A stretch of 18,545 nucleotides of DNA from Pedosphaera sp. (lineage in GTDB: Bacteria; Verrucomicrobiota; Verrucomicrobiia; Limisphaerales; SIBH01): the NCBI GenBank assembly GCA_031414955.1, contig JANOQV010000098.1, forward strand, positions 1-18,545. The letters are read 5' to 3'. The notes below the pieces were generated by a model that was given only the letters and a program-made list of their open reading frames with translations, ran no database searches and had not been told where the DNA came from. Made by a program: the position numbers and the translations under genes. Below, piece after piece: positions 4,346-18,545 of this stretch (positions within the stretch are counted from its first letter, which is position 1; every line of letters begins with the position of its first letter).

Positions 4346-6289
4346 TCAATACACCAGCACCAGCACCGCCGCCTGCTCGACCGACTTCACCACGTCCTCA
4401 AACTTCCGCTCCTTCGTGTTTGCGTCTTTGAGTTTGGCCGACACTTCCGGCACGGATTCGAGGAAGCTGAGCAGGAAGCTGCTCTTCACCGCGTAATTCA
4501 CGTTTTCCGGCAAGGCTCCGCTCGCGGCCAGCGCCGCCCGCGCGCTCAGCTTGGCCGACACCACGCCCACCACGTTCCCGCGCTCCTCCACCAGCGCCCC
4601 GCCCGAATTGCCCGGCTGCACCGGCACGCTGATTTGAAAATACCGCGCGTCATCCTGTGCGCCGGAGAGCGCGGCGATTTCGCCCCGGGCCAGCTTGGGC
4701 GCGAACCCTTGCAGACCCACGTTGGGGAAACCGACTGTGGCCACCGTGCTCCCCAGCCGCATCCCACGGCTCGCCACCACCGGCAACGCCGCAAACCGGC
4801 CCTCCGCCTTGAGCAACGCGAGGTCATTGGCCGCATCCACCTTCACCACTTTGGCGGCGATGATTCCCGCGCTCGTGACCAGCCGCACTTGCGAGGACTC
4901 TTTGACCACATGCTCGTTCGTGATCAGAAATCCATCCTCGGTGATGAAGAAACCGGTGCCGTAAGATTCCGGGCGTGCTTTTGCAATGCCCGTGCTTGAA
5001 CTATCGTTCTCGGCGGAAGGCGTCTGCCGCGACTTGAAATTGCGCGCCAATTTTTGTCCCTCCGCAATTTCCTCTCGCCCCATCTTGGCTTCCAGTAGGG
5101 ACACCATCTTGTTCGCATTCTCCTCGCCCTTCCCCGCAGCTAGAATTAGCCATTTGTAGGCCTCCACCTCATCTTTAGCAACGCCTCGACCAAAGGCGTA
5201 GCAGAAGCCCAGAACAGATTGTCCTTGGGCATCATTCTGCTCGGCTGCCTTGCGAAACCACTTGACCCCTTCCACGTCATTCTTCGCCACGCCTTCGCCC
5301 TTTTGATAGCAGACGCCCAGATTGGATTGAGCTTGGGCGAGATTCTGTTCGGCGGCTTTGCGATACCATTTTACCGCCTCGGTGTAATCTTGCACCACGC
5401 CCTGGCCATTGGCGTAGCAGCGACCCAAGCCGAATTGAGCCGTTGAGTTGTTCTGCTCGGCGGCTTTCTGAAACCATTTTACCGCTTCGGTGTAGTCTGT
5501 CGCCACTCCCCGAGCGTAGGAAAAGCACACGCCGAGTTTAACCTGAGCATTGACGTTATTCTGTTCAGCGGCTTTCCGATACCAACTCACCGCTTCCGCC
5601 TGATCCTGCTCGATGCCTTTGCCAAGCGCATAGCAAATACCCATGTTGTATTGAGCGGTGGCGTGATTCTGCTCGGCCGCTTTGCGATACCAATCCACGG
5701 CCACGACATCGTCCTTGGGGACGCCTTGTCCAAAGGAGTAGCAAACACCCAGATTGAATTGAGCCTCGCCGTCATTTTGCGCGGCTGCTTTGCGGTACCA
5801 TTTTACCGCTTCGATGTGGTCCTCGGCCACACCGCTGCCTGTGTGGTAGGAACGACCGAGGTGGAACTGAGCCGCCGGCAATCCCTTTTCTGCGGCTTTG
5901 CGAAACCATTTGGCAGCTTCGGCTTCGTCTTTGGCAACTCCAATACCGAAACGATACGCGAGTCCTTTGTAGTACTGCTCGTTAGCATCTTCACTTTCTG
6001 CTTTGGGTTTGACTTGAACACGGTCTGAATTCCGTGGTGCTCGCTTCCAATGGTGTAGCACGAGTACCGATGCAATTGCCGCGATGACCACTGCCGCACA
6101 TGTAGTCACCGCCCATTGAAGCAGACGTTTGGAACGTGCGGCCGGTGCTGGTGCCGCAAGCTCGCTTGCGGAATTTGGAATACTGAGGGATTTGGCGCAA
6201 ATCGGGCAGGGAATTTCCATGCCGGCACCTTCGTCCTCGACTGCAAGGTTGCTGCCGCAATGTGGACATTGGAACTTAATGTCGGCCAC
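4346..6289 (-). CDS. Zinc-ribbon + TM + 8 Sel1-like repeats + trypsin-like (S1) serine protease
   Basis: Likely GTG start at 6289 (VADIKFQCPHC...CPIC); TM AAVVIAAIASVLVL; eight 36-aa Sel1 repeats; catalytic triad motifs TNEHVV, ANDLALLK and QPGNSGG. Confidence 0.92.
   Translation of the reverse strand: MADIKFQCPHCGSNLAVEDEGAGMEIPCPICAKSLSIPNSASELAAPAPAARSKRLLQWAVTTCAAVVIAAIASVLVLHHWKRAPRNSDRVQVKPKAESEDANEQYYKGLAYRFGIGVAKDEAEAAKWFRKAAEKGLPAAQFHLGRSYHTGSGVAEDHIEAVKWYRKAAAQNDGEAQFNLGVCYSFGQGVPKDDVVAVDWYRKAAEQNHATAQYNMGICYALGKGIEQDQAEAVSWYRKAAEQNNVNAQVKLGVCFSYARGVATDYTEAVKWFQKAAEQNNSTAQFGLGRCYANGQGVVQDYTEAVKWYRKAAEQNLAQAQSNLGVCYQKGEGVAKNDVEGVKWFRKAAEQNDAQGQSVLGFCYAFGRGVAKDEVEAYKWLILAAGKGEENANKMVSLLEAKMGREEIAEGQKLARNFKSRQTPSAENDSSSTGIAKARPESYGTGFFITEDGFLITNEHVVKESSQVRLVTSAGIIAAKVVKVDAANDLALLKAEGRFAALPVVASRGMRLGSTVATVGFPNVGLQGFAPKLARGEIAALSGAQDDARYFQISVPVQPGNSGGALVEERGNVVGVVSAKLSARAALAASGALPENVNYAVKSSFLLSFLESVPEVSAKLKDANTKERKFEDVVKSVEQAAVLVLVY
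5123..5986 (-). repeat. Eight tandem 108-bp Sel1-like coding repeats
   Basis: The AQxxLGxCYxxGxGVxxDxxEAVKWxRKAAEQ unit was counted 8 times. Confidence 0.9.
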
Positions 6290-6479
6290 AGAATTTTTTG
6301 GAACGTAGTGCGACTGCCCTTGAAACGCCAAGAGTTGGGCAGCCGCATGTCGCCATTCCTGAGACTGTGCGTCCCTGTATCTTCCGTCCAGTTTTTTAAC
6401 CCACCCGTAATTTTTGAATGGATCAAAAATGTCGCCGCTTGAAAACCGTTGGGCATAATGCTCCAAGAAACGAGATACG

Positions 6480-7151
6480 ATGAGCCGAACCACCAGCATC
6501 CATTACGACCCAGCGAAGCTCAAAGAGCAGTATCCCGCCATCGCTGAATCTCAGCAAAATGCGCTCAAAAAAATTATCGACGACGCTTACGTTCGTACGA
6601 CGGAATTGAACCTTGATGACCCACATGAATTGTTACGGTTCGCACTCACTCGGCTTGAACCGCTTTCGGATTCCGAACCGTACATGCAACTCCGAGCCTC
6701 CCTTAAAAACCTAACGCTGCGTGAGTCTGTCCTGAGTCTTGCGAAACGCATTGAGGATGATGCCGCGCTGGCAAAGCATCTCGCAACGCTGCTCAAGATT
6801 TTCGAGCGTGGGCCATTGACGAAGTCTGATTACGATTTCAACCGTGCGGATCAGGACCCGAGCGTTCGTCTCCTGGTCGAGCATTGGATTCAAGACCCGG
6901 CGCGGAAAAACTTTCTGTGGGAAAGCCTTTGCTTTTGCAGCGATCTGGCAATGGCGAAGTTGGTCTATGCAAAGACAAAAGGAATGGAGCTGCCACCGCG
7001 ACTGCTCACCAAAGAGCCGGAACGAATCAGAAAGTTGTATGGCCGTCTCGGGCTGATCCCGGCACGTCCGCGAATCATCAAAGACGTTGATCTCAAGGGT
7101 GGGAAGGTCCGTTGGGTTTGCTTCAAGAACGCGCTCGGTAGAAGATCCTAA
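6480..7151 (+). CDS. Hypothetical protein, 223 aa, in a lower-GC segment
   Basis: Long ORF with natural helical, charged composition. 6541-6600 is 26/60 GC. No family recognised. Confidence 0.7.
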   Translation: MSRTTSIHYDPAKLKEQYPAIAESQQNALKKIIDDAYVRTTELNLDDPHELLRFALTRLEPLSDSEPYMQLRASLKNLTLRESVLSLAKRIEDDAALAKHLATLLKIFERGPLTKSDYDFNRADQDPSVRLLVEHWIQDPARKNFLWESLCFCSDLAMAKLVYAKTKGMELPPRLLTKEPERIRKLYGRLGLIPARPRIIKDVDLKGGKVRWVCFKNALGRRS

Positions 7152-8361: not shown

Positions 8362-8674
8362 TCAAACGTAAAGCGCCGCCTGCAACTCCAGCACCAACAT
8401 GTTCATGATGGGGTGGCGCTTGTTCGGATCGCGCTCCAGGCATTTGAGGATGGTTTTCTCCAGCGCGGGTGGGATGCCGGGATTCACTTCGCGCGGCGGG
8501 GCGAGGAAGTGCATGTCGAGTTGCTGGCGGAGCACGTCCTCGGGCGTCTCGCCGGGGAAGGGCTTGCTGCCGGTGAGCAGTTCATACGCAGTGACGCCAA
8601 AGGCAAAGATGTCCACGCGATGGTCGATGCCGGCGCGGCGCAGTTGCTCGGGCGCCATGTAGCTGGGCGTGCCG
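8362..8674 (-). pseudogene. C-terminal fragment of a Hanks-type Ser/Thr kinase (subdomains VIII-XI)
   Basis: Motifs GTPSYMAPEQ, DIFAFGVTAYELLTG and KCLERDPNKR. No DFG, HRD or ATP-binding lobe upstream, where the frame closes within a few codons. Confidence 0.88.
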
Positions 8675-8786
8675 TTCGAGGGTGCGATCACGTCGAGCTT
8701 TCATTGCACGAACTGCCGCGAGATGGGATTGCACTTTGCCGCAGAGCATTCCGCGGTCGCGGCGCGCGGGCCGGTGCTGGACGCCA

Positions 8787-9100: not shown

Positions 9101-9706
9101 TCAGGGCTGTTCGCGCACGGAGGAGACGCGCGCCTCGGTGACGGACTTCTGGACCAGCAGCGCGCGGAAGGACCATCGACCGCGCGGCTCGATGGTGTCC
9201 TTGTAATCCCGGGCGCTGCCGAGCCGGGTGCCTGCGGCATCGAACAGGCCCAGTTCGACGGTGACGCCATAGCGCGGTTTTTCGGTCTCGTTCTTGATCG
9301 TGCCCACGGCATAAACCAGCGTGCTGCCGGCCGTACTTTCAATCCGGGCGGGGGCGGCGGAGAAGCCGTCGAAATTCTCGGCGCGGGGCGCGGGCGGTGT
9401 GGCTTTGGGAGCGGCCAGGACGATTGAGCGGGCATCTGCGGCGCGTGCTTTTTTCGCCAATCGTTGAGCTAGGATCAGCGCGCCCACCACCCCGGCCACG
9501 CCCACCATGAGAACCATTGCGCCCGCCATAATCCACTTCCGGTTCCGCGAGTCGAATGCCGAGGTGGGCGCAGGCAGCACGAGGGCCAGTTCGGTTGGCT
9601 GGGCGCAGTGCGGACAGTCGATGCTCAGTCCGAGTCCTTCGGCGGGAAACTCGATGTGTCCCCCGCATTGCGCACAACTGCATTTGAGAAAACTCTTCGC
9701 GCTCAT
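9101..9706 (-). CDS. Zinc-ribbon + TM + FxLYD-domain protein
   Basis: Start MSAKSFLKCSCAQC...CPHC; TM WIMAGAMVLMVGVAGVVGALIL; C-terminal GTIKNET...VTVELGLFDAAGTRLG...IEPRGRWSF. Confidence 0.85.
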   Translation of the reverse strand: MSAKSFLKCSCAQCGGHIEFPAEGLGLSIDCPHCAQPTELALVLPAPTSAFDSRNRKWIMAGAMVLMVGVAGVVGALILAQRLAKKARAADARSIVLAAPKATPPAPRAENFDGFSAAPARIESTAGSTLVYAVGTIKNETEKPRYGVTVELGLFDAAGTRLGSARDYKDTIEPRGRWSFRALLVQKSVTEARVSSVREQP

Positions 9707-9778: not shown

Positions 9779-11203
9779 ATGAACGCCACAAACAAATACA
9801 TCGCCGGGCACGCGGCGAAACCTGAGGACTTTTTCCAGACCCGACGGCAGTTCCTACAGCGCGCCGGCATGGGCTTTGGGGCGCTGGGACTGGCGGGTTT
9901 GATGGGCGGGAGCCTCGTGCCGTCCCAGGCCGCCGCTGCGGACGTGATGAATCCGCTCTCCCCGAAAGCGCCGCACTTCCCCGCCAAGGCCAAGCACGTC
10001 GTGCATATTTTCGCCCAAGGCGCTCCCTCGCAGGTGGACACTTGGGACCCGAAACCTGCGCTGGCCAAATACGACGGCAAGCCAATCCCCGGCCAGAACG
10101 GCGGCCTGGCCATGGCCTCTCCGTTCAAGTTCGCCAAGCACGGCAAGTCGGGCATTGAGGTCAGTGAAGTCTTCCCCAAACTCGCGCAGCACGTCGATGA
10201 ACTGGCCATCATCCGCTCCTGTTACACGGACATTCCCGCCCATGATGTCGCGACCACCTTCATGAACACCGGCTCGCTGCGCCTCTCGCGGCCGAGCATT
10301 GGCTCATGGGTGCTGTATGGGTTGGGCACGGAGAACCAGAACATGCCGGGGTTTGTTTCGCTGCGGCCCGGCGGCCAGCCGGGCAGTTCCAACTGGGGTT
10401 CGGCTTTCTTGCCCGGCGTCTTCCAGGGCGTGAGCATCAACACTCAGGACACCGACGTGAATGCGCTCATCCAAAACATCCGCAATCAGTACACCGTGCT
10501 GCCCGAGCAACGTCGCCAGCTTGACCTCGTGCATAAGCTGAACGAAATCCACAGCCAGAATCTCCAGAAGGAGGCGCAGCTCGAAGCGCGCCTCCAGGCC
10601 TACGAGATGGCCTTCAAGATGCAGACCGAGGCCACGGATGCTTTCGACATCACCAAGGAATCCGCCGAGACGCGCGCCGCCTACGGCAACACGAATCAGG
10701 GGCGGCAACTGCTCATCACCCGCCGCCTGATCGAACGCGGCGTGCGCTTCGTGCAAGTGTGGGCGGGCGGATGGGACCATCATCAGGACATCGAGGATCG
10801 CCTGCCGCAGAAAGCGAGAGAGATTGATCAGCCGTTCGCCGCCTTCCTCACCGATCTGAAGAAGCGCGGACTTTTCGACAGCACGCTGGTCATGTGGGGC
10901 GGCGAATTCGGCCGCAAGCCGGTCAAGGATCGCAACGGCAACGACAATCCCGGCCGCGACCATAACAACAAGGCTTTCACCACTGTGCTCGCGGGCGGCG
11001 GAGTAAAGGGCGGCACGGTCTATGGCGCGACGGATGAATTCGGAGCCGCCGCCGTGACGGACAAGGTTCACGTCCACGACATCCACGCCACGCTGCTCGC
11101 GCTGCTTGGCTTCGACCACGAGAAGCTGACCTTCCGCAACAACGGCCGCGACTTCCGGCTGACGGAAGTCTATGGCCATGTGGTCAAGGGCATCATGGCG
11201 TAA
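9779..11203 (+). CDS. DUF1501 sulfatase-like protein with Tat-like signal
   Basis: Motifs TRRQFL, HFPAKAKHVVHIFAQGAPSQVDTWDPKP, RRLIERGVRFVQV, WDHH, WGGEFGR, GRDH, YGATDEFG and VHVHDIHAT. ATG at 9779. Confidence 0.93.
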   Translation: MNATNKYIAGHAAKPEDFFQTRRQFLQRAGMGFGALGLAGLMGGSLVPSQAAAADVMNPLSPKAPHFPAKAKHVVHIFAQGAPSQVDTWDPKPALAKYDGKPIPGQNGGLAMASPFKFAKHGKSGIEVSEVFPKLAQHVDELAIIRSCYTDIPAHDVATTFMNTGSLRLSRPSIGSWVLYGLGTENQNMPGFVSLRPGGQPGSSNWGSAFLPGVFQGVSINTQDTDVNALIQNIRNQYTVLPEQRRQLDLVHKLNEIHSQNLQKEAQLEARLQAYEMAFKMQTEATDAFDITKESAETRAAYGNTNQGRQLLITRRLIERGVRFVQVWAGGWDHHQDIEDRLPQKAREIDQPFAAFLTDLKKRGLFDSTLVMWGGEFGRKPVKDRNGNDNPGRDHNNKAFTTVLAGGGVKGGTVYGATDEFGAAAVTDKVHVHDIHATLLALLGFDHEKLTFRNNGRDFRLTEVYGHVVKGIMA

Positions 11204-11318
11204 CCGCCACGGTCTTTCCTTCACGCCGCGTTTCGACCCGCCCGGAACGCGGCATGTTCATTCTCCGTCCAGCCGGAAGCAGCACGCCTGAACCTTGCCC
11301 CCAAGTCACGGACGCGTG

Positions 11319-11339
11319 GTAGAGCGCGTCGCTCCGCGC
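11319..11339 (+). repeat. Possible solitary GTAG-type REP palindrome
   Basis: GTAG-A-GCGCG-TCGCTC-CGCGC in intergenic DNA. Confidence 0.3.
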
Positions 11340-11453
11340 GCCGCCGCCCGCAACCCCATCAGTGGCACCTGTTAGGTGCGCCCCTATTTTTTGCGCCCCG
11401 CGAATTCCTTCGCCTTTCCCCATCCGCTCCGCTTTCATGGTCGCAGAATTTGC

Positions 11454-12206
11454 ATGGCGATGAACAATCCAGACAGCCAGCCCCCGGTCCATTTCGCCCG
11501 CGAATTTGCCACGACCCATTGGAGCGTCGTTCTCCTCGCGGGCAGCGCGGCGTCGGAACAGGCGGACACGGCCTTGGAACATCTCTGCCGCGCTTACTGG
11601 TATCCGCTTTACGCGTATGTGCGGCGGCAAGGTCACGATGCGCACGACTCCCAGGATTTGACCCAGGATTTTTTCGCGCGCTTTCTGGAGCGGAAACATC
11701 TGCGCCTCGCCGATCCCGGGCGCGGCCGGTTCCGAACCTTCCTGCTCTGCTCGTTGAAGCACTTCCTGATTAACGAATGGGAAAAATCACGGGCGATAAA
11801 ACGCGGCGGCGCGCACACGATTGTCTCCTGAGATGAACAAACGGCAGAGGGACGTTACCTCGCCGAGCCGGTGGCCACACTGACACCCGAGAGCATTTAC
11901 GAAAAGCGCTGGGCCGTCACTCTGCTGGAGAAAGTCCTCGCGCGCCTGCGGGAGAGTTATGTGACTGCGGAGAAGGCTCCGCTCTTTGATGCCCTCAAGC
12001 CCTACGTATGGGGCGACACGATCACGGAGGGCTACGAGGTGCTGGCGGCACGGCTTGGCATGAGCGACGGCGCGGTTCGCGTGGGGATGCACCGTTTGCG
12101 TGAATCGTATCGCGACCTCCTGCGCGATGAGGTGGCGCGCACCGTGGCGTCGCCCGCGGAGGTGGATGAGGAGCTGCGGCACTTGGTCGCCGCGCTGCGC
12201 AGTTAG
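11454..12206 (+). pseudogene. ECF sigma factor (kinase-associated type) with in-frame TGA at 11829-11831
   Basis: FATTHWSVV, LEHLCRAYWYPLYAYVRRQG, DSQDLTQDFF, GRFRTFL, KRGG...IVS*DEQTAEGRY...YEKRWA...LAARLGMSDGAVRVGMHRLR...EVDEELRHL, all in one frame through the stop. Confidence 0.9.
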
Positions 12207-12211
12207 CAGGT

Positions 12212-12303
12212 GGAGCTGCGGACCGCCGAGTCCGCAGAAGCTTTGCTGAAATAAGCCAGGATTGGGAGTGAGGCAAACTGCGGACTTGGAGGTCCGCGAC
12301 TCC
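12212..12303. repeat. Inverted pair of REP-like palindromes (REPIN-like)
   Basis: 12212..12237 matches the reverse complement of 12278..12303 at 22/26. Each arm is itself a hairpin (GCGGAC-N6-GTCCGC). Confidence 0.8.
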
Positions 12304-12306
12304 GGG

Positions 12307-12338
12307 CTGTAACAATTCTGCCGCAGTGCTGTAGCAAC
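12307..12338 (+). promoter_or_regulatory. Putative ECF promoter, copy 1
   Basis: CTGTAAC-N15-CTGTAGCAAC, ending 19 nt before the kinase ATG (12358). Confidence 0.7.
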
Positions 12339-12357
12339 GAAGTAAGTACAACGAACA

Positions 12358-15300
12358 ATGTCCAAGCCCAAAGAGCAACTCTGCGCCAAGTGCGGAGCGG
12401 AACTCGCCGCCTTTGCGACCGAGGGTTTTTGCTCGGCGTGCCTCCTTGAGCGGGGCTTGGGCGCGCTTGATGCCACTTCAGTTGCTGCCACCGAGCGCGT
12501 GACTTCCGCCGCCTCGGAAGCCCCCGGTGATCGCATCGACCGCTACAAGCTCCTCCAACAAATTGGCGAAGGTGGTTGCGGCGTGGTGTACATGGCCGAG
12601 CAGACGGAACCGGTGCGCCGGCGTGTTGCGCTCAAGGTCATCAAACTGGGCATGGACACCCGGCAGGTCATTGGCCGGTTTGAGGCAGAACGCCAGGCGC
12701 TCGCGCTCATGGACCATCCGAACATCGCGAAGGTGTTCGATGCCGGGGCCACGGGGACGGGGCGGCCATATTTTGTGATGGAATTGGTGAAGGGCATTCG
12801 CATCACCGACTATTGCGATCAAAACCACCTCTCCACCCGCCAGCGCCTCGATCTTTTCACGCAGGTTTGTCAGGCCATCCAACACGCACACCAGAAGGGC
12901 ATCATCCATCGCGACATCAAACCCTCGAACATTTTGGTGACGTTGCACGACGGCGTGCCGGTGCCCAAGGTGATCGACTTCGGCATCGCCAAGGCAACCG
13001 AACAACCCTTGACCGAGAAGACAGTGTTCACCGCGCTCGGGCAGTTCATGGGCACGCCCGCCTACATGAGTCCGGAGCAGGCGGAATTGAGCGGCCTGGA
13101 CATCGACACGCGCAGCGACATCTACGCGCTGGGTGTGCTGCTTTACGAATTGCTCACGGGCCGGACGCCCTTTGACGCGAAAGAACTGTGGCAGGCTGGC
13201 CTGGATGAGATGCGCCGCAGAATCCGCGAGGAAGAACCGGTGCGGCCCAGCACCCGGTTGAGCACGATGACCGACGCCGACCTGACCCAAGTCGCCCAGC
13301 ACCGTCAGTCCGAACCGGCCAAGTTGACGCGTTTCCTGCGGGGCGATCTGGACTGGATCGTAATGAAGTGTCTGGAGAAGGACCGGACGCGCCGCTACGA
13401 GACGGCCAACGGACTGGCGACAGATTTGCGGCGACACCTCGACAACGAGCCGGTCTTGGCCTGTCCGCCGAGCGCGACCTACCGATTCCAAAAACTGGTT
13501 CGTCGGAACAAGCTCGGGTTTGCGGCCGTGAGCGCGGTGGCCGCGGCGCTGGTGATCGGATTGGGCATCGCGGCCTGGCAGGTTTTCGAGAAGACCAAGG
13601 CTTACAACCGGGCGGTCGCCGCTGAGAAACAAGCTGGAATCCATGCCAAGGCGGAGGAAGCGCAACGCAAGCAGGCTGAATCGCAACGAGAGCACAACCG
13701 CCAACGTCTTGTGCGTGCCCATGTCTCTCAAGGCGCACAACTGGTCGAGCAGGGCGATTACTTCGGCGCGCTCCCGTGGTTCGTCGAGGCGCTGAACATC
13801 GATCAAGGTCATCCGGACGAGGAGGAGCATCACCGCATGAGGATCGCCGCGGTCCTGGAACAATCGCCCCGACTATTCCACACCTGGTTCCATCAAGGAC
13901 CGGTGCGACATGCTGAGTTCAGTTCCGATGGCCGCAGCATTCTGACGGCGAGCCAGGATCGTACGGCGTGTGTTTGGGATACGTTCACGGGAGTCCGGCG
14001 TGCGGTGTTTCAGCACGCGGATGATGTCCAGCACGCGGCGTTCAGCCCGGATGGAGAACATGTCGTGACCGCCTGTGCCGACGGGACGGTGGTGATTTGG
14101 GATGTTGCCACCGCGAAACCAATTGGCCTGCCGATGAAACACGAGGCCCGCGTGAATCGGGCGGTGTTCAGCGCGGATGGACGCCGGATCGTTTCAGCCA
14201 GCGAAGACAAGACGGCCAGAATTTGGGAGGCCGCGACCGGCGAACCCCTGGCCGTGGCCCTCGGTCACGGCGCCGGAGTCAAGGACGCGCGCTTCAGGCC
14301 GGACGGACGCCACATCGCAACCATCAGCAGCGACACTTCCATTCGCATCTGGGACAGCACCACGGGCAAGCAAATCCATAGCTCGCCCGCTTATTCCCGC
14401 TACGTGTTTGGCGTCAGCTACAGTTCCGACGGCAGCCGGCTGGTTGGGGCCAGTTGGGGGAAGGCACTGGTGCTGGACGGGAAGAGCGGCAGCCGAATCG
14501 CTCCCATACTTGAGCACCTTCAAGGCATCAGAAGCGCCGACTTCAGTCATGATGGCAAGCGCATCATCACAGCCAGTGAAGACCAGACCGTGCGCGTATG
14601 GGACTCGACAACCGGTCACGAGTTGATCGCTCCGCTCCGTCATCCCCACTCGGTGACCCGGGCCTCGTTCAGCCCGACGGGCCAATGGATTATCACCGCC
14701 TGTGACGACGGAGTGGCGCGCATCTGGGACGCGAAGACGTCGGAGCCGGTGGCCCCGTTCTTAAAGCAGAGCGGGCCATTGACCGAGGCGTGTTTCAGTC
14801 CGGGGGGATCCTACGTGTTGACCGCAGGGAGCGACGGCACGGTGCGGTTATGGGACATGGCGAGCAGCCAGCCTCGATCTGTCCCGCTCGATCATGGGGA
14901 TCAGGTCCGCCAAATAAGATTCAGCACCGACGGCCGATGGGTTCTGACAACGAGTGCCGACAGGATTGCACAGGTCTGGGAGGCCTCGACTGGACGAAGG
15001 AGTGGCCCGCGGCTGGAGCACAGTTCTGCGGTGCTGGATGGCTGCTTCAGTCGGGATGGTTCACGAGTCGCGACCGCGAGTATGGGCGGCACGGCGGAGG
15101 TTTGGGATCGCGCATCGGGCCGAAAGCTATTCCCGTCCCTGCTCCACACCGGAGAAGTCGTCCGCATTCAGTTCAGCAAAGCTGGGCGTCAGCTTCTCAC
15201 GGTCAGCGGCAACAAGCTCGTTAACAGAACAGCGCGGCAGGAGTTGAACATCAGCGAAAGTCCAGTCTTCGTGCAGACCTGGGATGTTGAAACAGGCCGG

Positions 15301-17088
15301 CCCATCACCGGTTCGATTCCTTTGGAGAATTCCCTCGGCCCCCTGGACGTGAGCGCAGATGGGCTCCGGATTGTGACTGCCTGCAAGGATGGGTTCTTCC
15401 GCATTTGGGCGACGACCACCGGCCAGTTCCTTGCGACGTTGCCGATCACCAACGGTTTTTTGATGACCGTGACCTTCAGCCCCGACGGAGGGCTTGTGGC
15501 GACGGCGGTGACCAAGTCGGATGTAGGTGAGGTCTCCGTTTGGGAGACCTCCACGGGCCGACCGTTGGCTCCGCCGATCAAGCACCGCAAATTCATCTAC
15601 GAGATGACGTTTAGTCGGGACGGCAGACGCATTGTCACCGCCAGTGCCGATGGCACGGCGCGCCTCTGGGACACCGCGACCAGCCAGCCCACAACCCCGC
15701 CCCTGGTGCATCAATTTGATGTCTTCAGCGCCGATTTCAGCCTAGATGGCCGCCGGGTCGTCACGGGCAGCGGTGACCACACCGCGCGGGTTTGGGACGC
15801 GCAAACCGGGGAACTGATCGGCCCGCCTTACCAGCATAACGGCTATGTGATTCGCGTGGTCTTCAGCCCGGACGGACACCAGATTCTGTCCGCGATGTCG
15901 CAGTCAGTAGATGTGACCAAAATCGAAACGGCCGCCCAGCTTTGGCACCTGCCGACCGATTCGAGGACTGTAGAAGACTTGCAACGGGCCGCCGAGATTC
16001 TCTCCAGCCACCGCATCGACGCCACCAGCAGCCTGGTCCCGCTGGAATCGGAAACCTTGCCAGTCGCCTGGTCCAACTTTGTGCAAAAATCTTCCGGCCC
16101 GAAGTCCGGGGTGGATGAACTGGCGCCCGACTGGCATTGGCGCAAGATGGAACAGGCTGAAAAATCCGGCCGATGGTCCGTGGTGCTCCTCCACGCTGAA
16201 CGACTCATGGCCAGCGGAACAAACCTGACGCGAGGGGGACGGACTGAAGACCGGTTGAAACTCGCCCGAGCCGGAGTGCTGTGCAAAACAGGCCGATTCG
16301 AGGAGGCACAAAAGTTGGTGAGCGAACTTCCCCCCGCCACGATTCAGGCAGAAGCGCAGACGGCCGGGAAGGTCATCCACGCTTTGGGCCGTTGGGCTGC
16401 GGGCGAGAACCGATGGCGGGAAGCCGCCGCTCATTACAACGTGCTCGTCTATGGGGCCGCCAATGGGATTGGACTGGAAAGAGAATTCCATCCAATGACG
16501 ATGGCCTATACCGAGTATGCCGCCTTGCTGGTCACGCTGGGGGATACGAACCGCTATCTGGCACTCCGTGAAGCCGCGCTTCGCAATCACGGTGCCACGC
16601 GTAACCCAACGGCAGGAGAACGAATGCTGATCACTTCCCTGCTTTGGCCGCTGGAGCCAACACAAATGGCAGCGATGACCAACTGGGGGAACATCGCTGT
16701 ATTCACACCTCAGAATCCAAAAGAGTTGGAAGCGTGAGCCAGTGTCGCGCTTGCCCTGTACGAATATCGCCGGGGCGGCTACCAGCAAGCAATCGCGTGG
16801 GGCAAGAAATGCCTCAGCTTCGGTGAGTTTCCCGCCCGCAGTCACCGCGCGCACCTTCTGATGGCCATGTCTTATCTCCAGCTTGGTCAACGCCCGGAAG
16901 CTCAAGCTGAACTGAGCCAATGCCGCGAAACCATCGAGAACAATGCCCGCGGAAGACTGGGCGTTGGAGACTATCAAACCAACGGCCACTGGCACGACAG
17001 ACTCATCAACCACATCCTCCTGCGTGAAGCCGTGATGAACCTGCCCGGGAATCAGTCCGCTGTTCCCAATGTCATCACGGTGAAATGA
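12358..17088 (+). CDS. Membrane Ser/Thr kinase with 16 WD40 repeats and TPR-like tail; in-frame TGA at 16735-16737 cuts off the last ~116 aa
   Basis: CAKC/CSAC N-terminus; motifs [21 protein letters not shown] and [10 protein letters not shown]; a TM segment; 16 WD repeats counted (~13891-15948). The frame continues after the TGA as [13 protein letters not shown]...[10 protein letters not shown]...[14 protein letters not shown] to the TGA at 17088. Confidence 0.92.
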
Positions 17089-17260
17089 GCCGGGAACAGT
17101 TCACGAACCGTTTGTTCCCGCAAACATCGCCCTGGATCGACGTGCGAAGCATCGACTTCCCATCCTTCGGGACCGAATGCGCTCCTTGCCTCCTGGCCCT
17201 GACCGCTGAATGAGTTTTGCCTGGCCACGCTGCCGTGCTCGCCAGGTTTTCCAGGAAAGC

Positions 17261-17292
17261 CGGTAACACCTGCGGTTGCCTTCTGTAGCAGC
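17261..17292 (+). promoter_or_regulatory. Putative ECF promoter, copy 2
   Basis: CGGTAAC-N15-CTGTAGCAGC, ending 6 nt before the ATG at 17299. Confidence 0.65.
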
Positions 17293-17298
17293 AGTTGA

Positions 17299-17583
17299 AT
17301 GCGTGAACTCGTCTGCGCCGAAATTTTCCAAGTACCGGGGAAAGTCCGGCCAGTCGTGGATGGCCAAGAGAACTGCATGAGAATTTGCCGTTGTTGCGGT
17401 AGGTGGATGAACATGTGCAGTCCCAGCAATCCGAATCTTTGCCTGGATTGTGAGACGCTCACGCTCGACGACTCGCCCTCGCGGGCGGCTGGCCAAGCCG
17501 AAACGGAGCCCGCTCCGCAGGAATCGGACAAGGCCAAAACATTTCCTGTAACGAGGGCGGCGGTTCTCTGTAGCAACCGGTGA
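17299..17583 (+). CDS. Small Cys-rich (zinc-ribbon-like) hypothetical protein
   Basis: CRCC...NPNLCLDC followed by an acidic low-complexity tail. Starts immediately after motif copy 2. Confidence 0.6.
   Translation: MRELVCAEIFQVPGKVRPVVDGQENCMRICRCCGRWMNMCSPSNPNLCLDCETLTLDDSPSRAAGQAETEPAPQESDKAKTFPVTRAAVLCSNR
17546..17577 (+). promoter_or_regulatory. Putative ECF promoter, copy 3
   Basis: CTGTAAC-N15-CTGTAGCAAC, in the 3' end of the small ORF, 107 nt before the ATG at 17685. Confidence 0.7.
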
Positions 17584-17684
17584 GTGCCCGAACCGTTCTC
17601 CGCTGAAATGCTCCGGGTGCTGGGAAAAGCCAGCACCGCCGTCATGGATCACGAGTCGGGCCGAATCCAAACCAACGACTCGTT

Positions 17685-18147
17685 ATGAAACATTTGTTTT
17701 TGTTCCGCACCCGGCGCTCCAGCCAGCCGGAAGCCGTCACTCCAACGTGGGCCTCAGCGGGGCTAGCCAAAGTCGGCCTCTGGATAGTGTTGGGCGCGGC
17801 CATGATCTTCGCGGCCGGCCGTCTGGTGATCTTCGCTGCGGAATGCGGCACTATTGACAACACTTTCTGGAGGTTTACGGCCGCCAGTTCCGCAACCAAG
17901 GCCGCAGTGGATGGCACGAATATCTACCTCGTTGCTGGGGACAGGATCAGCATCCTCGACATGCCAACCGGGGTGGAAACTGTGTCCAACACCTTCCTCG
18001 GGGTGACCCTTGGACGACCAATCGTCGCCAGTTTGAAGGGAGCCTCGAACGAAGTGATCGTCGCGGGTGATATTGGTTACTTGTACGGCCTCAATGGCAG
18101 CACGCTGATCACGAACTGGACTCGCAGCACGCTGCGCGGCAGTTGTA
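17685..18147 (+). pseudogene. Secreted or membrane-anchored PQQ-like beta-propeller protein truncated by an IS insertion
   Basis: Hydrophobic N-terminal segment and the repeats VDGTNIYLVAGDRISILDMPTG and VIVAGDIGYLYGLNGSTLITNW. The frame runs into the IS end at 18148 and stops at 18176. Confidence 0.65.
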
Positions 18148-18545
18148 GGGTGCATCCGTACACCGTACTTAATTAGGCGGGTTGCCAGAGTTGATCCCAA
18201 TGGTGGTTGCGGCGGGCTTCGTCGAGGGCGAGCAGAGCGCGCAAGCCGGGCCGCGTCCAAAATTGTCCGGCCCGCTTGAAGCGGCACTGTTTCTGCCGAC
18301 AGGCACTTTCCACCGCGCCGCTCCCGATGGGCCAGCCGCGCCGCGCCACGGCCTGATAGTTCATCCGCCCGGCGTGGCCGCCAAAATAGCCCTGCTCCCG
18401 CGCTAGGATTTTGCCCGCCGCCCCGCGCCGCTTTTTTAGCCGGGCGATTTCTCCCAGCACCGCCCGCTCCCGTCCGTGGCGCAACCGGTGCCGCCGCGGT
18501 TCCACCCACGCGCTCAACTCCGGCGGGGCTTCCCCGCGCAGCGCG
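18148..18545 (-). mobile_element. Right end of an ISKra4-like insertion sequence (partial)
   Basis: Transposase 3' end followed within 25 nt by ...TACGGATGCACCC on the minus strand, a plausible terminal inverted repeat. Confidence 0.75.
18173..18545 (-). CDS. ISKra4-like DDE transposase, C-terminal part (open to the window edge)
   Basis: GYF..HAGRMNY...RRGWPIGSGAVESACRQ..CRFKRAGQFW motif. Confidence 0.88.
   Translation of the reverse strand, partial: ALRGEAPPELSAWVEPRRHRLRHGRERAVLGEIARLKKRRGAAGKILAREQGYFGGHAGRMNYQAVARRGWPIGSGAVESACRQKQCRFKRAGQFWTRPGLRALLALDEARRNHHWDQLWQPA

Follow-up and report, generated by a model that had tools for sequence, protein, structure and literature searches.

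A candidate promoter 3' of kinase-linked ECF sigma factor genes in Pedosphaera sp. and its relatives, with predicted paralog-specific -10 elements

An 18,545-nucleotide (nt) stretch of the Pedosphaera sp. genome (GenBank assembly GCA_031414955.1, contig JANOQV010000098.1; hereafter the window) carries a gene for an extracytoplasmic function (ECF) sigma factor, followed on the same strand by a gene for a membrane Ser/Thr kinase of the Hanks type and by three copies of a bipartite motif of fixed spacing. The locus raises the question of what reads these three copies. Judged from comparative sequence analysis, the motif is very likely a promoter read by the neighbouring ECF sigma; it lies downstream of the sigma gene, would drive the kinase and surface protein genes, and would carry a -10 specific to each paralog. 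The original prediction, that the motif is the promoter of this sigma family and drives the kinase and downstream genes, is thus upheld as very likely by its position, by covariation with the sigma and by the sharing of sites within a locus.

A pattern scan of the window matched CKGTAAC-N15-CTGTAGCARC at 12307, 17261 and 17546, all on the + strand, as had been reported, compared with 0 matches in 200 dinucleotide shuffles (mean 0.00, largest 0); the pattern was derived from these same three copies. Written as boxes, each copy consists of TGTAAC or GGTAAC, 16 unrelated bases and TGTAGCA, which bears out the earlier description of unrelated spacers between two conserved boxes at a conserved distance. 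No motif copy was found upstream of the window's sigma gene when the window was scanned with the pattern and with a class matrix (below), again as described before. The sigma gene, the kinase gene and the three copies are arranged as follows.

11454 to 12206, + strand: ECF sigma factor gene of the FxTTxWS type, 250 codons, with a Sigma70_r2 match
12308 to 12337, + strand: copy 1; -35 TGTAAC at 12308-12313, 16 nt, -10 TGTAG CAA at 12330-12337; 27.9 bits; predicted start 12344, kinase ATG at 12358
12358 to 17088, + strand: Ser/Thr kinase gene with Pfam Pkinase, WD40 and weak TPR matches
17262 to 17291, + strand: copy 2, the weakest; GGTAAC, 16 nt, TGTAG CAG; predicted start 17297
17547 to 17576, + strand: copy 3; TGTAAC, 16 nt, TGTAG CAA; 29.7 bits; predicted start 17582

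Copy 1 holds the same position relative to the sigma and kinase genes as the site in homologous loci. A sigma homologue was present in 110 of 151 genomes of the order, and the source genome (G000) contains about 25 paralogs of the window's sigma (27 tblastn rows). The family set comprised 162 distinct full-length sigmas, taken from the best 150 of 441 matches, 25 loci and the genome's own paralogs, and is skewed toward the best-scoring relatives. The -35 sequence YGTAAC was found in 69/159 downstream regions, compared with 8/159 on the opposite strand and 17/154 upstream regions. An iterated matrix yielded the scaffold YGTAAC-cttt-N7-ttTt-C-[six variable bases]-A; the family element is therefore YGTAAC-N16-(variable six bases)-A, and the window motif is one version of it. 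When each locus and its relatives of >65% identity were excluded from matrix training, the cross-validated family matrix matched 102/159 downstream regions versus 5/151 upstream regions. The downstream matches included 86 of the 106 loci with a kinase close 3' and 16 of the 53 without one. A zinc-finger open reading frame (ORF), the type with which these kinases begin, started 3' of 89/103 sites, within 58 nt in 79 of the 89.

The site was also recovered in loci held out from the analysis. Sigma homologues (42-53% identity) with zinc-finger kinases were present in 38 of 201 genomes in a Pirellulales-centred order search, and among the held-out loci of this order (31 new sigmas) the matrix matched 25/31 downstream regions versus 1/31 upstream. 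A further 23 Verrucomicrobiae sigmas (24 before the window's own row was removed) gave 9 downstream matches, all kinase-linked, and 0 upstream. Kinase-free homologues, including L240, L247, L248, L250, L252, L253, L254, L255 and L256 among others, had no downstream site; many kinase-free sigmas have L at residue 86 and are possibly a subgroup under another control. A sigma-70-like pattern preceded 34/154 sigma genes, compared with 2 and 2 in windows farther upstream, 6 for the opposite strand and 8.6 after shuffling, and two of these 34 matches were the family motif itself. The data suggest that the sigma gene in this family is mostly not autoregulated. We infer that motif searches upstream of such sigma genes report none because the site lies 3' of the gene.

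The second line of evidence comes from the sigmas themselves. Mutual information was computed over all residue-base pairs for those sigmas that have a strong site (103 of the 162), and the calculation was repeated in 64 representatives of <65% identity (7820 pairs). In each of the top 11 pairs, a -10 base was matched with a residue of region 2 or a -35 base with a residue of region 4; the residues involved were N107, A86, E110, I106, H103 and R90 in region 2 and V210 and R209 in region 4. At residue 107, N went with T (70/75) and D with C (15/16); at residue 86, A with A (60/61) and V with T (27/35); at residue 106, I or V with G (30/30) and A with T (42/51); and at residue 210, V with T (70/70) and S with C (8/13). 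The window's sigma, with A86, I106, N107, R209 and V210, predicts TGTAAC and TG-A, and the copies agree. The predictions for held-out Pirellulales were correct in 10/15, 20/23 and 20/24 cases (tallied by hand), and K or R107 went with G in 9/9 of these sigmas versus 4/14 for N107. On an unsupported tree, the pairings ran in the same direction in 10/11, 14.5/16, 8/10 and 6.8/10 pairs and none in the opposite direction, whereas mismatched control pairings on that tree split evenly.

The family profile aligns to a solved SigE, and by this alignment we take residues 107 and 209/210 to be Asn84 and Arg171/Ser172 in RpoE numbering. In the mutagenesis described in bioRxiv 2020.06.23.168245, Arg171 gives -31C, Ser172 sets -34 and Asn84Asp prefers -13C. 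The code reported there by Todor et al. 2020 thus uses the same key positions and has the same D-to-C rule at -13 as the present family. The promoters in that collection, as the preprint describes them, precede the sigma gene, the operon that holds it or a gene in divergent orientation, and a site downstream of the sigma gene falls outside it. Three rules come from the present data set: A/V-to-A/T at residue 86, the one at residue 106 and K/R107-to-G.

The motif might instead serve some other transcription factor as its operator, or be left over from gene duplication. Related loci do share ancestry, and the short core is not enriched genome-wide, both of which would fit such an origin. Against both readings, the spacers are unrelated although the two boxes and the spacing between them are conserved, and the bases covary, domain by domain, with the predicted DNA-reading residues of the sigma; the matrix also carries over to another phylum. 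We consider an operator or relic very improbable.

The original prediction had called for a motif matrix and genome scans, and these gave a divided answer: placement by homologous sigma loci is non-random, whereas the bare core is not enriched by count. The core GTAAC-N16-TGTAG occurred 5 times in the 6.5-Mb genome, compared with 0-7 times at other spacers from 10 to 23, and it had a match in 33/61 genomes, where the reversed control was often equally or more frequent. The non-random feature of the core is its position, not its count. Besides the three window copies, one genome match lies 68 nt 3' of the closest sigma paralog (C202, 57%) and the other lies before the start of a close paralog (C61, 52%) in divergent orientation. 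Core matches in related genomes were clustered (5 copies in G008, 3 in G034 and 2 each in G001, G002 and G007), with the first copy 30-50 nt 3' of a homologous sigma gene. With a TGTAG-class matrix trained on 24 TGTAG-class sites from other genomes, copy 3 ranked third (29.7 bits) and copy 1 fourth (27.9 bits) in the genome. The C61 paralog (19130-19747) ends abruptly within region 4 and is the second broken member of the window sigma's clade in this genome; its promoter copy faces the divergent gene.

Several results weigh against a promoter read by the neighbouring sigma. Copy 2 scored 17.7 bits with the TGTAG-class matrix, below the best reversed-control match (21.9), and is no stronger than chance genome-wide; the family matrix gave it 9.9. 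A sigma-70-like site was looked for upstream of the window's sigma and not found, and 5/151 loci have the family site upstream of the sigma gene. The covariation covers strong-site sigmas only, with 59 of the 162 left out, and 5/14 Pirellulales N107 sigmas lack T at the paired base. Finally, well-supported branches of the tree held only 2-5 independent pairs, none significant in this under-powered test. The loci with an upstream site are L191 (at 1380), C37 of the source genome (upstream of 16989), L176, L183 and L103, and this minority of sigmas may be autoregulated.

If the neighbouring sigma reads the motif, region 4 would bind TGTAAC as the -35, while region 2 would both bind the -10, TGTAG, and melt it; transcription would then start about 10 nt downstream of the A in TGTA. 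A pyrimidine-purine step 9-10 nt past this A was present at 60/103 sites, compared with 9-42 at neighbouring positions, and such a step at the start is described for ECF promoters in bioRxiv 2020.06.23.168245. In the window, the T[AG]A[AG]T element after each copy coincides with the predicted start site; starts are predicted at 12344, 17297 and 17582 because the pyrimidine-purine step lies at this element.

The promoters of Bacillus subtilis SigW, SigX and SigM have a spacing of 16 nt. As presented in PMC5758882, they have in common with the present motif a -35 ending in AAC and a T-rich stretch just after it, and the CGTA of SigW shares the -10 core GTA. The -10 had earlier been called atypical; this description does not hold, as TGTA stands in the register of the ECF -13 to -10 and SigW has CGTA there. 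The TGTAAC formerly ascribed to SigX had 0 occurrences in the searched main text of PMC5758882. The present motif differs from the B. subtilis promoters described in that paper: its -10 begins with T rather than C, is preceded by a second T tract and followed by conserved G and A, and the whole motif lies 3' of the sigma gene rather than before it.

TGTAG as a family-wide -10 had to be given up: it is one clade's version, and paralogs use other -10s. A scan of 72 loci that disregarded the six variable bases gave 42 secondary sites in 35 of them. Between these sites and the first site of the same locus, 5.05 of the 6 bases agreed, compared with 2.92 in 2000 shuffles (maximum 3.60); outside the TGTAG class the values were 4.81 versus 2.39. 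The C123 and C132 paralogs of the source genome have their own site clusters, with -10s such as GTTGGGAA, TTTGGGAA, TGTGGGAA and GTTGGTAA. These two sigmas (C123, 34644-47293, - strand; C132, 30299-35232, + strand) are near-identical, with 4 and 2 copies of the GTTGGGAA/TTTGGGAA type, and two targets in the clusters are homologous proteins with signal-peptide-like starts. Genes 3' of TGTAG-class copies encode kinases and proteins with signal-peptide-like starts, as judged by eye. Paralog-specific local regulons are likely, as predicted from these sites. When active, a sigma would raise the levels of the membrane kinase paired with it and of secreted or surface proteins encoded nearby, and each paralog would read its own six-base -10 on a common -35 and spacer scaffold, so that the roughly 25 paralogs of one genome would be kept on separate local regulons.

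The locus in the window is probably a decaying copy. Its sigma gene is interrupted at codon 126, which falls in the linker joining regions 2 and 4, by a TGA (11829-11831), and a second TGA at 16735-16737 cuts off the last 116 residues of the kinase, where the reading frame runs on beyond the stop. When read with X at the break, the sigma aligns over its full length with its paralogs; neither half matched Sigma70_ECF, and a fold model (predicted local distance difference test score, pLDDT, 78) gave weak ECF matches, all of them with E above 0.001. The closest homologue (70% identity) has TGG (Trp) at codon 126, and its site carries the identical CTGTAGCAA. An assembly error at both stops is unsupported, as contigs of runs X1 and X2 repeat both TGAs letter for letter; both runs come from a single study and may represent the source sample itself. 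The locus looks decayed because of these stops in the sigma and kinase genes and because its third gene is split by an insertion sequence (IS); the module is probably dead or dying in this strain, and the circuit is probably not working because the sigma carries a nonsense codon.

Both breaks are TGA and the closest homologue has tryptophan at the sigma break, which would also be expected if TGA were read as tryptophan and both proteins were intact. The 29 kinase matches in the genome, however, contain 27 Trp and no stop; the other long sigma paralog matches have 0 stops (only one 41-residue fragment has one), several sigma paralogs terminate in TGA, and the IS has hit the third gene of the same locus. 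By the kinase counts the genome uses the standard code, and such recoding is hardly credible.

With the window's sigma interrupted, the three sites could be real promoters that are now read by the C202 sigma, whose own -10 is TGTAGT, with the kinase and targets still expressed. No stop interrupts the aligned part of the C202 sigma, which shares A86, H103, N107 and the TGTAG core with the window's sigma. The sixth -10 base, however, is C in all three window copies and T at the C202 and C61 sites; within the TGTAG class, T accompanies S95 in 16/16 sigmas and T95, the residue of the window's sigma, in 1/10. One target gene is moreover split by the IS. Reading by the C202 sigma is therefore rather unlikely, and it concerns the present reader of the sites, not their nature.

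The remaining features downstream of the kinase are given below.

17299 to 17583, + strand: Cys-rich ORF, 94 codons, or 68 from the ATG at 17377; putative gene, overlapping copy 3
17685 to 18147, + strand: first 154 codons of the third gene, which encodes a giant predicted surface protein split by the IS
18148 to 18545, - strand: end of an ISKra4-like IS, interrupting the third gene

The kinase-WD40 label given to the first of the three genes was confirmed by Pfam. The order of its parts is an N-terminal CxxC-CxxC zinc finger (42 bits with a zinc-finger hidden Markov model, HMM), a kinase domain assigned together with its catalytic motifs, one hydrophobic segment placed by hydropathy (about residues 386-408), WD40 repeats and a TPR-like tail. 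The Cys-rich ORF had no Pfam match; no homologue was found for its 68-residue form, nor was one present among the loci compared. As a stand-alone version of the kinase zinc finger it was rejected, scoring -7.8 bits with the kinase zinc-finger HMM. Of the two effector genes first proposed, the third gene is established, whereas the Cys-rich ORF is without a homologue found and overlaps copy 3. Copy 2 may serve not this ORF but the third gene, as a second promoter in tandem. An RNA between copies 2 and 3 was also considered and rejected: there was no Rfam match in 11150-18545, the fold z was -0.59, and comparison with a similar tandem pair in L188 revealed no conserved stretch.

Copy 3 leaves a leader of 103 nt to the ATG of the third gene at 17685. 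The remaining 2665 codons of this gene start contig C132, after a 9-bp target duplication that flanks the IS on both sides. The continuation has a PQQ/BamB propeller, choice-of-anchor Q and GloVer repeats (NCBIfam), and weak PQQ_2 leads were also obtained; the first 161 codons had no homologue among longer proteins. What had earlier been labelled a PQQ-like protein is thus the first fragment of a giant predicted surface protein that the IS has split. The IS has an ISKra4 transposase match (E 2.8e-19) that is under the whole-protein cut-off. Its end at 18148-18545 is common to at least 18 other contigs by BLAST, often at contig ends, and the depth of the IS contig, about 20x that of its neighbours in X1 and X2, suggests a recently active element. 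Elsewhere in the window, on the - strand, are a short second Ser/Thr kinase-domain fragment (8362-8691; Pfam Pkinase, positions 158-258 only), a Sel1-repeat/trypsin protein (4346-6499) and an FxLYD protein (9101-9706), the latter two with CxxC zinc-ribbon motifs near their starts.

In EcfP/PknT of Vibrio parahaemolyticus and EcfK/PknS of Xanthomonas citri, which belong to ECF43, the gene after that of the sigma likewise encodes a membrane Hanks kinase, and there is no separate anti-sigma gene; ECF43 sigmas lack the acidic DxxD and gain the charge through phosphorylation, as described in PMC8999054 and PMC13147305. Activation in this style had been proposed here; in this mode the kinase would phosphorylate a threonine standing in place of the acidic DAED motif of region 2.2. 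The gene order fits, with the sigma adjoining a membrane Hanks kinase and no separate anti-sigma gene, and T70 just past the acidic motif is S/T in 92% of the 103 sigmas. Unlike ECF43, however, the present family keeps DxxD, and its kinases begin with a zinc finger: D65 is D or E in 95/103 and D68 is D in 102/103, and the window's sigma reads DSQD. Groups outside ECF43 keep DAED and may work differently, according to the account in PMC8999054. The Sig-70_X6 model (TIGR02999) gave 22.5 bits on an intact homologue, compared with a cut-off of 126, and was absent on another. The EcfP/PknT mode is thus improbable for a family that keeps the acidic DxxD that EcfP lacks. As far as these comparisons indicate, the kinase most likely controls sigma activity in another way than by supplying a missing charge.

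Nearly all family loci have the kinase zinc finger, and conserved Ser/Thr residues of the sigma are found in the N-terminal FxTTxWS and at T230. We tentatively suggest a Verrucomicrobiota/Planctomycetota cassette in which the kinase zinc finger would be a built-in anti-sigma released by phosphorylation, the sigma would transcribe its own regulator, and the pairs would be insulated from one another. Candidate phosphosites would be T20, T21 and S24 of FxTTxWS, or T230, and a code of three to five residues would give dozens of mutually insulated natural sigma-promoter pairs per genome. This suggestion is in keeping with L184 and L188, where a zinc-finger ORF stands by itself under the family promoter. 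The ORF in L184 (4805-5023, + strand; 72 residues, kinase N-terminal type) lies 3' of a promoter copy, and that in L188 (4128-4328, + strand; 66 residues) lies 3' of a promoter copy in the kinase's place; both could be kinase remnants. The top scores for covariation between sigma and zinc finger were no higher than shuffles in an under-powered set of 44 pairs.

The known group of most similar context is ECF62, which is listed by Casas-Pastor et al. 2021 (PMC7826278) as 100% Planctomycetes, with the entry "predicted target promoter motifs not conserved". Judged by gene context alone, the likeness consists of a kinase at +1, one membrane helix, WD40 repeats and an N-terminal zinc finger. The present loci differ from that listing in being mostly from Verrucomicrobiota, with homologues also in Pirellulales, and in having a conserved motif 3' of the sigma gene. 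No description of this promoter was found in the literature surveyed by title and abstract opening, where an earlier mention is possible; that literature included a paper on an Acinetobacter sigma with TGTAAC (PMC12153292). The kind of element is ordinary; what is new is its position and the code within the family, and the window copy is probably non-functional.

For the family, the kinase-linked ECF sigmas that keep DAED form a predicted group, and the group of similar context stands in the published listing without a conserved promoter. The promoter, the predicted start and the residue-to-base code together offer a basis for reporters of the sign of kinase control and of the residue involved. 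The predicted local regulon of each paralog, mostly the kinase with secreted or surface proteins, becomes readable from sequence, and the paralogs may constitute a natural set of possibly orthogonal switches.

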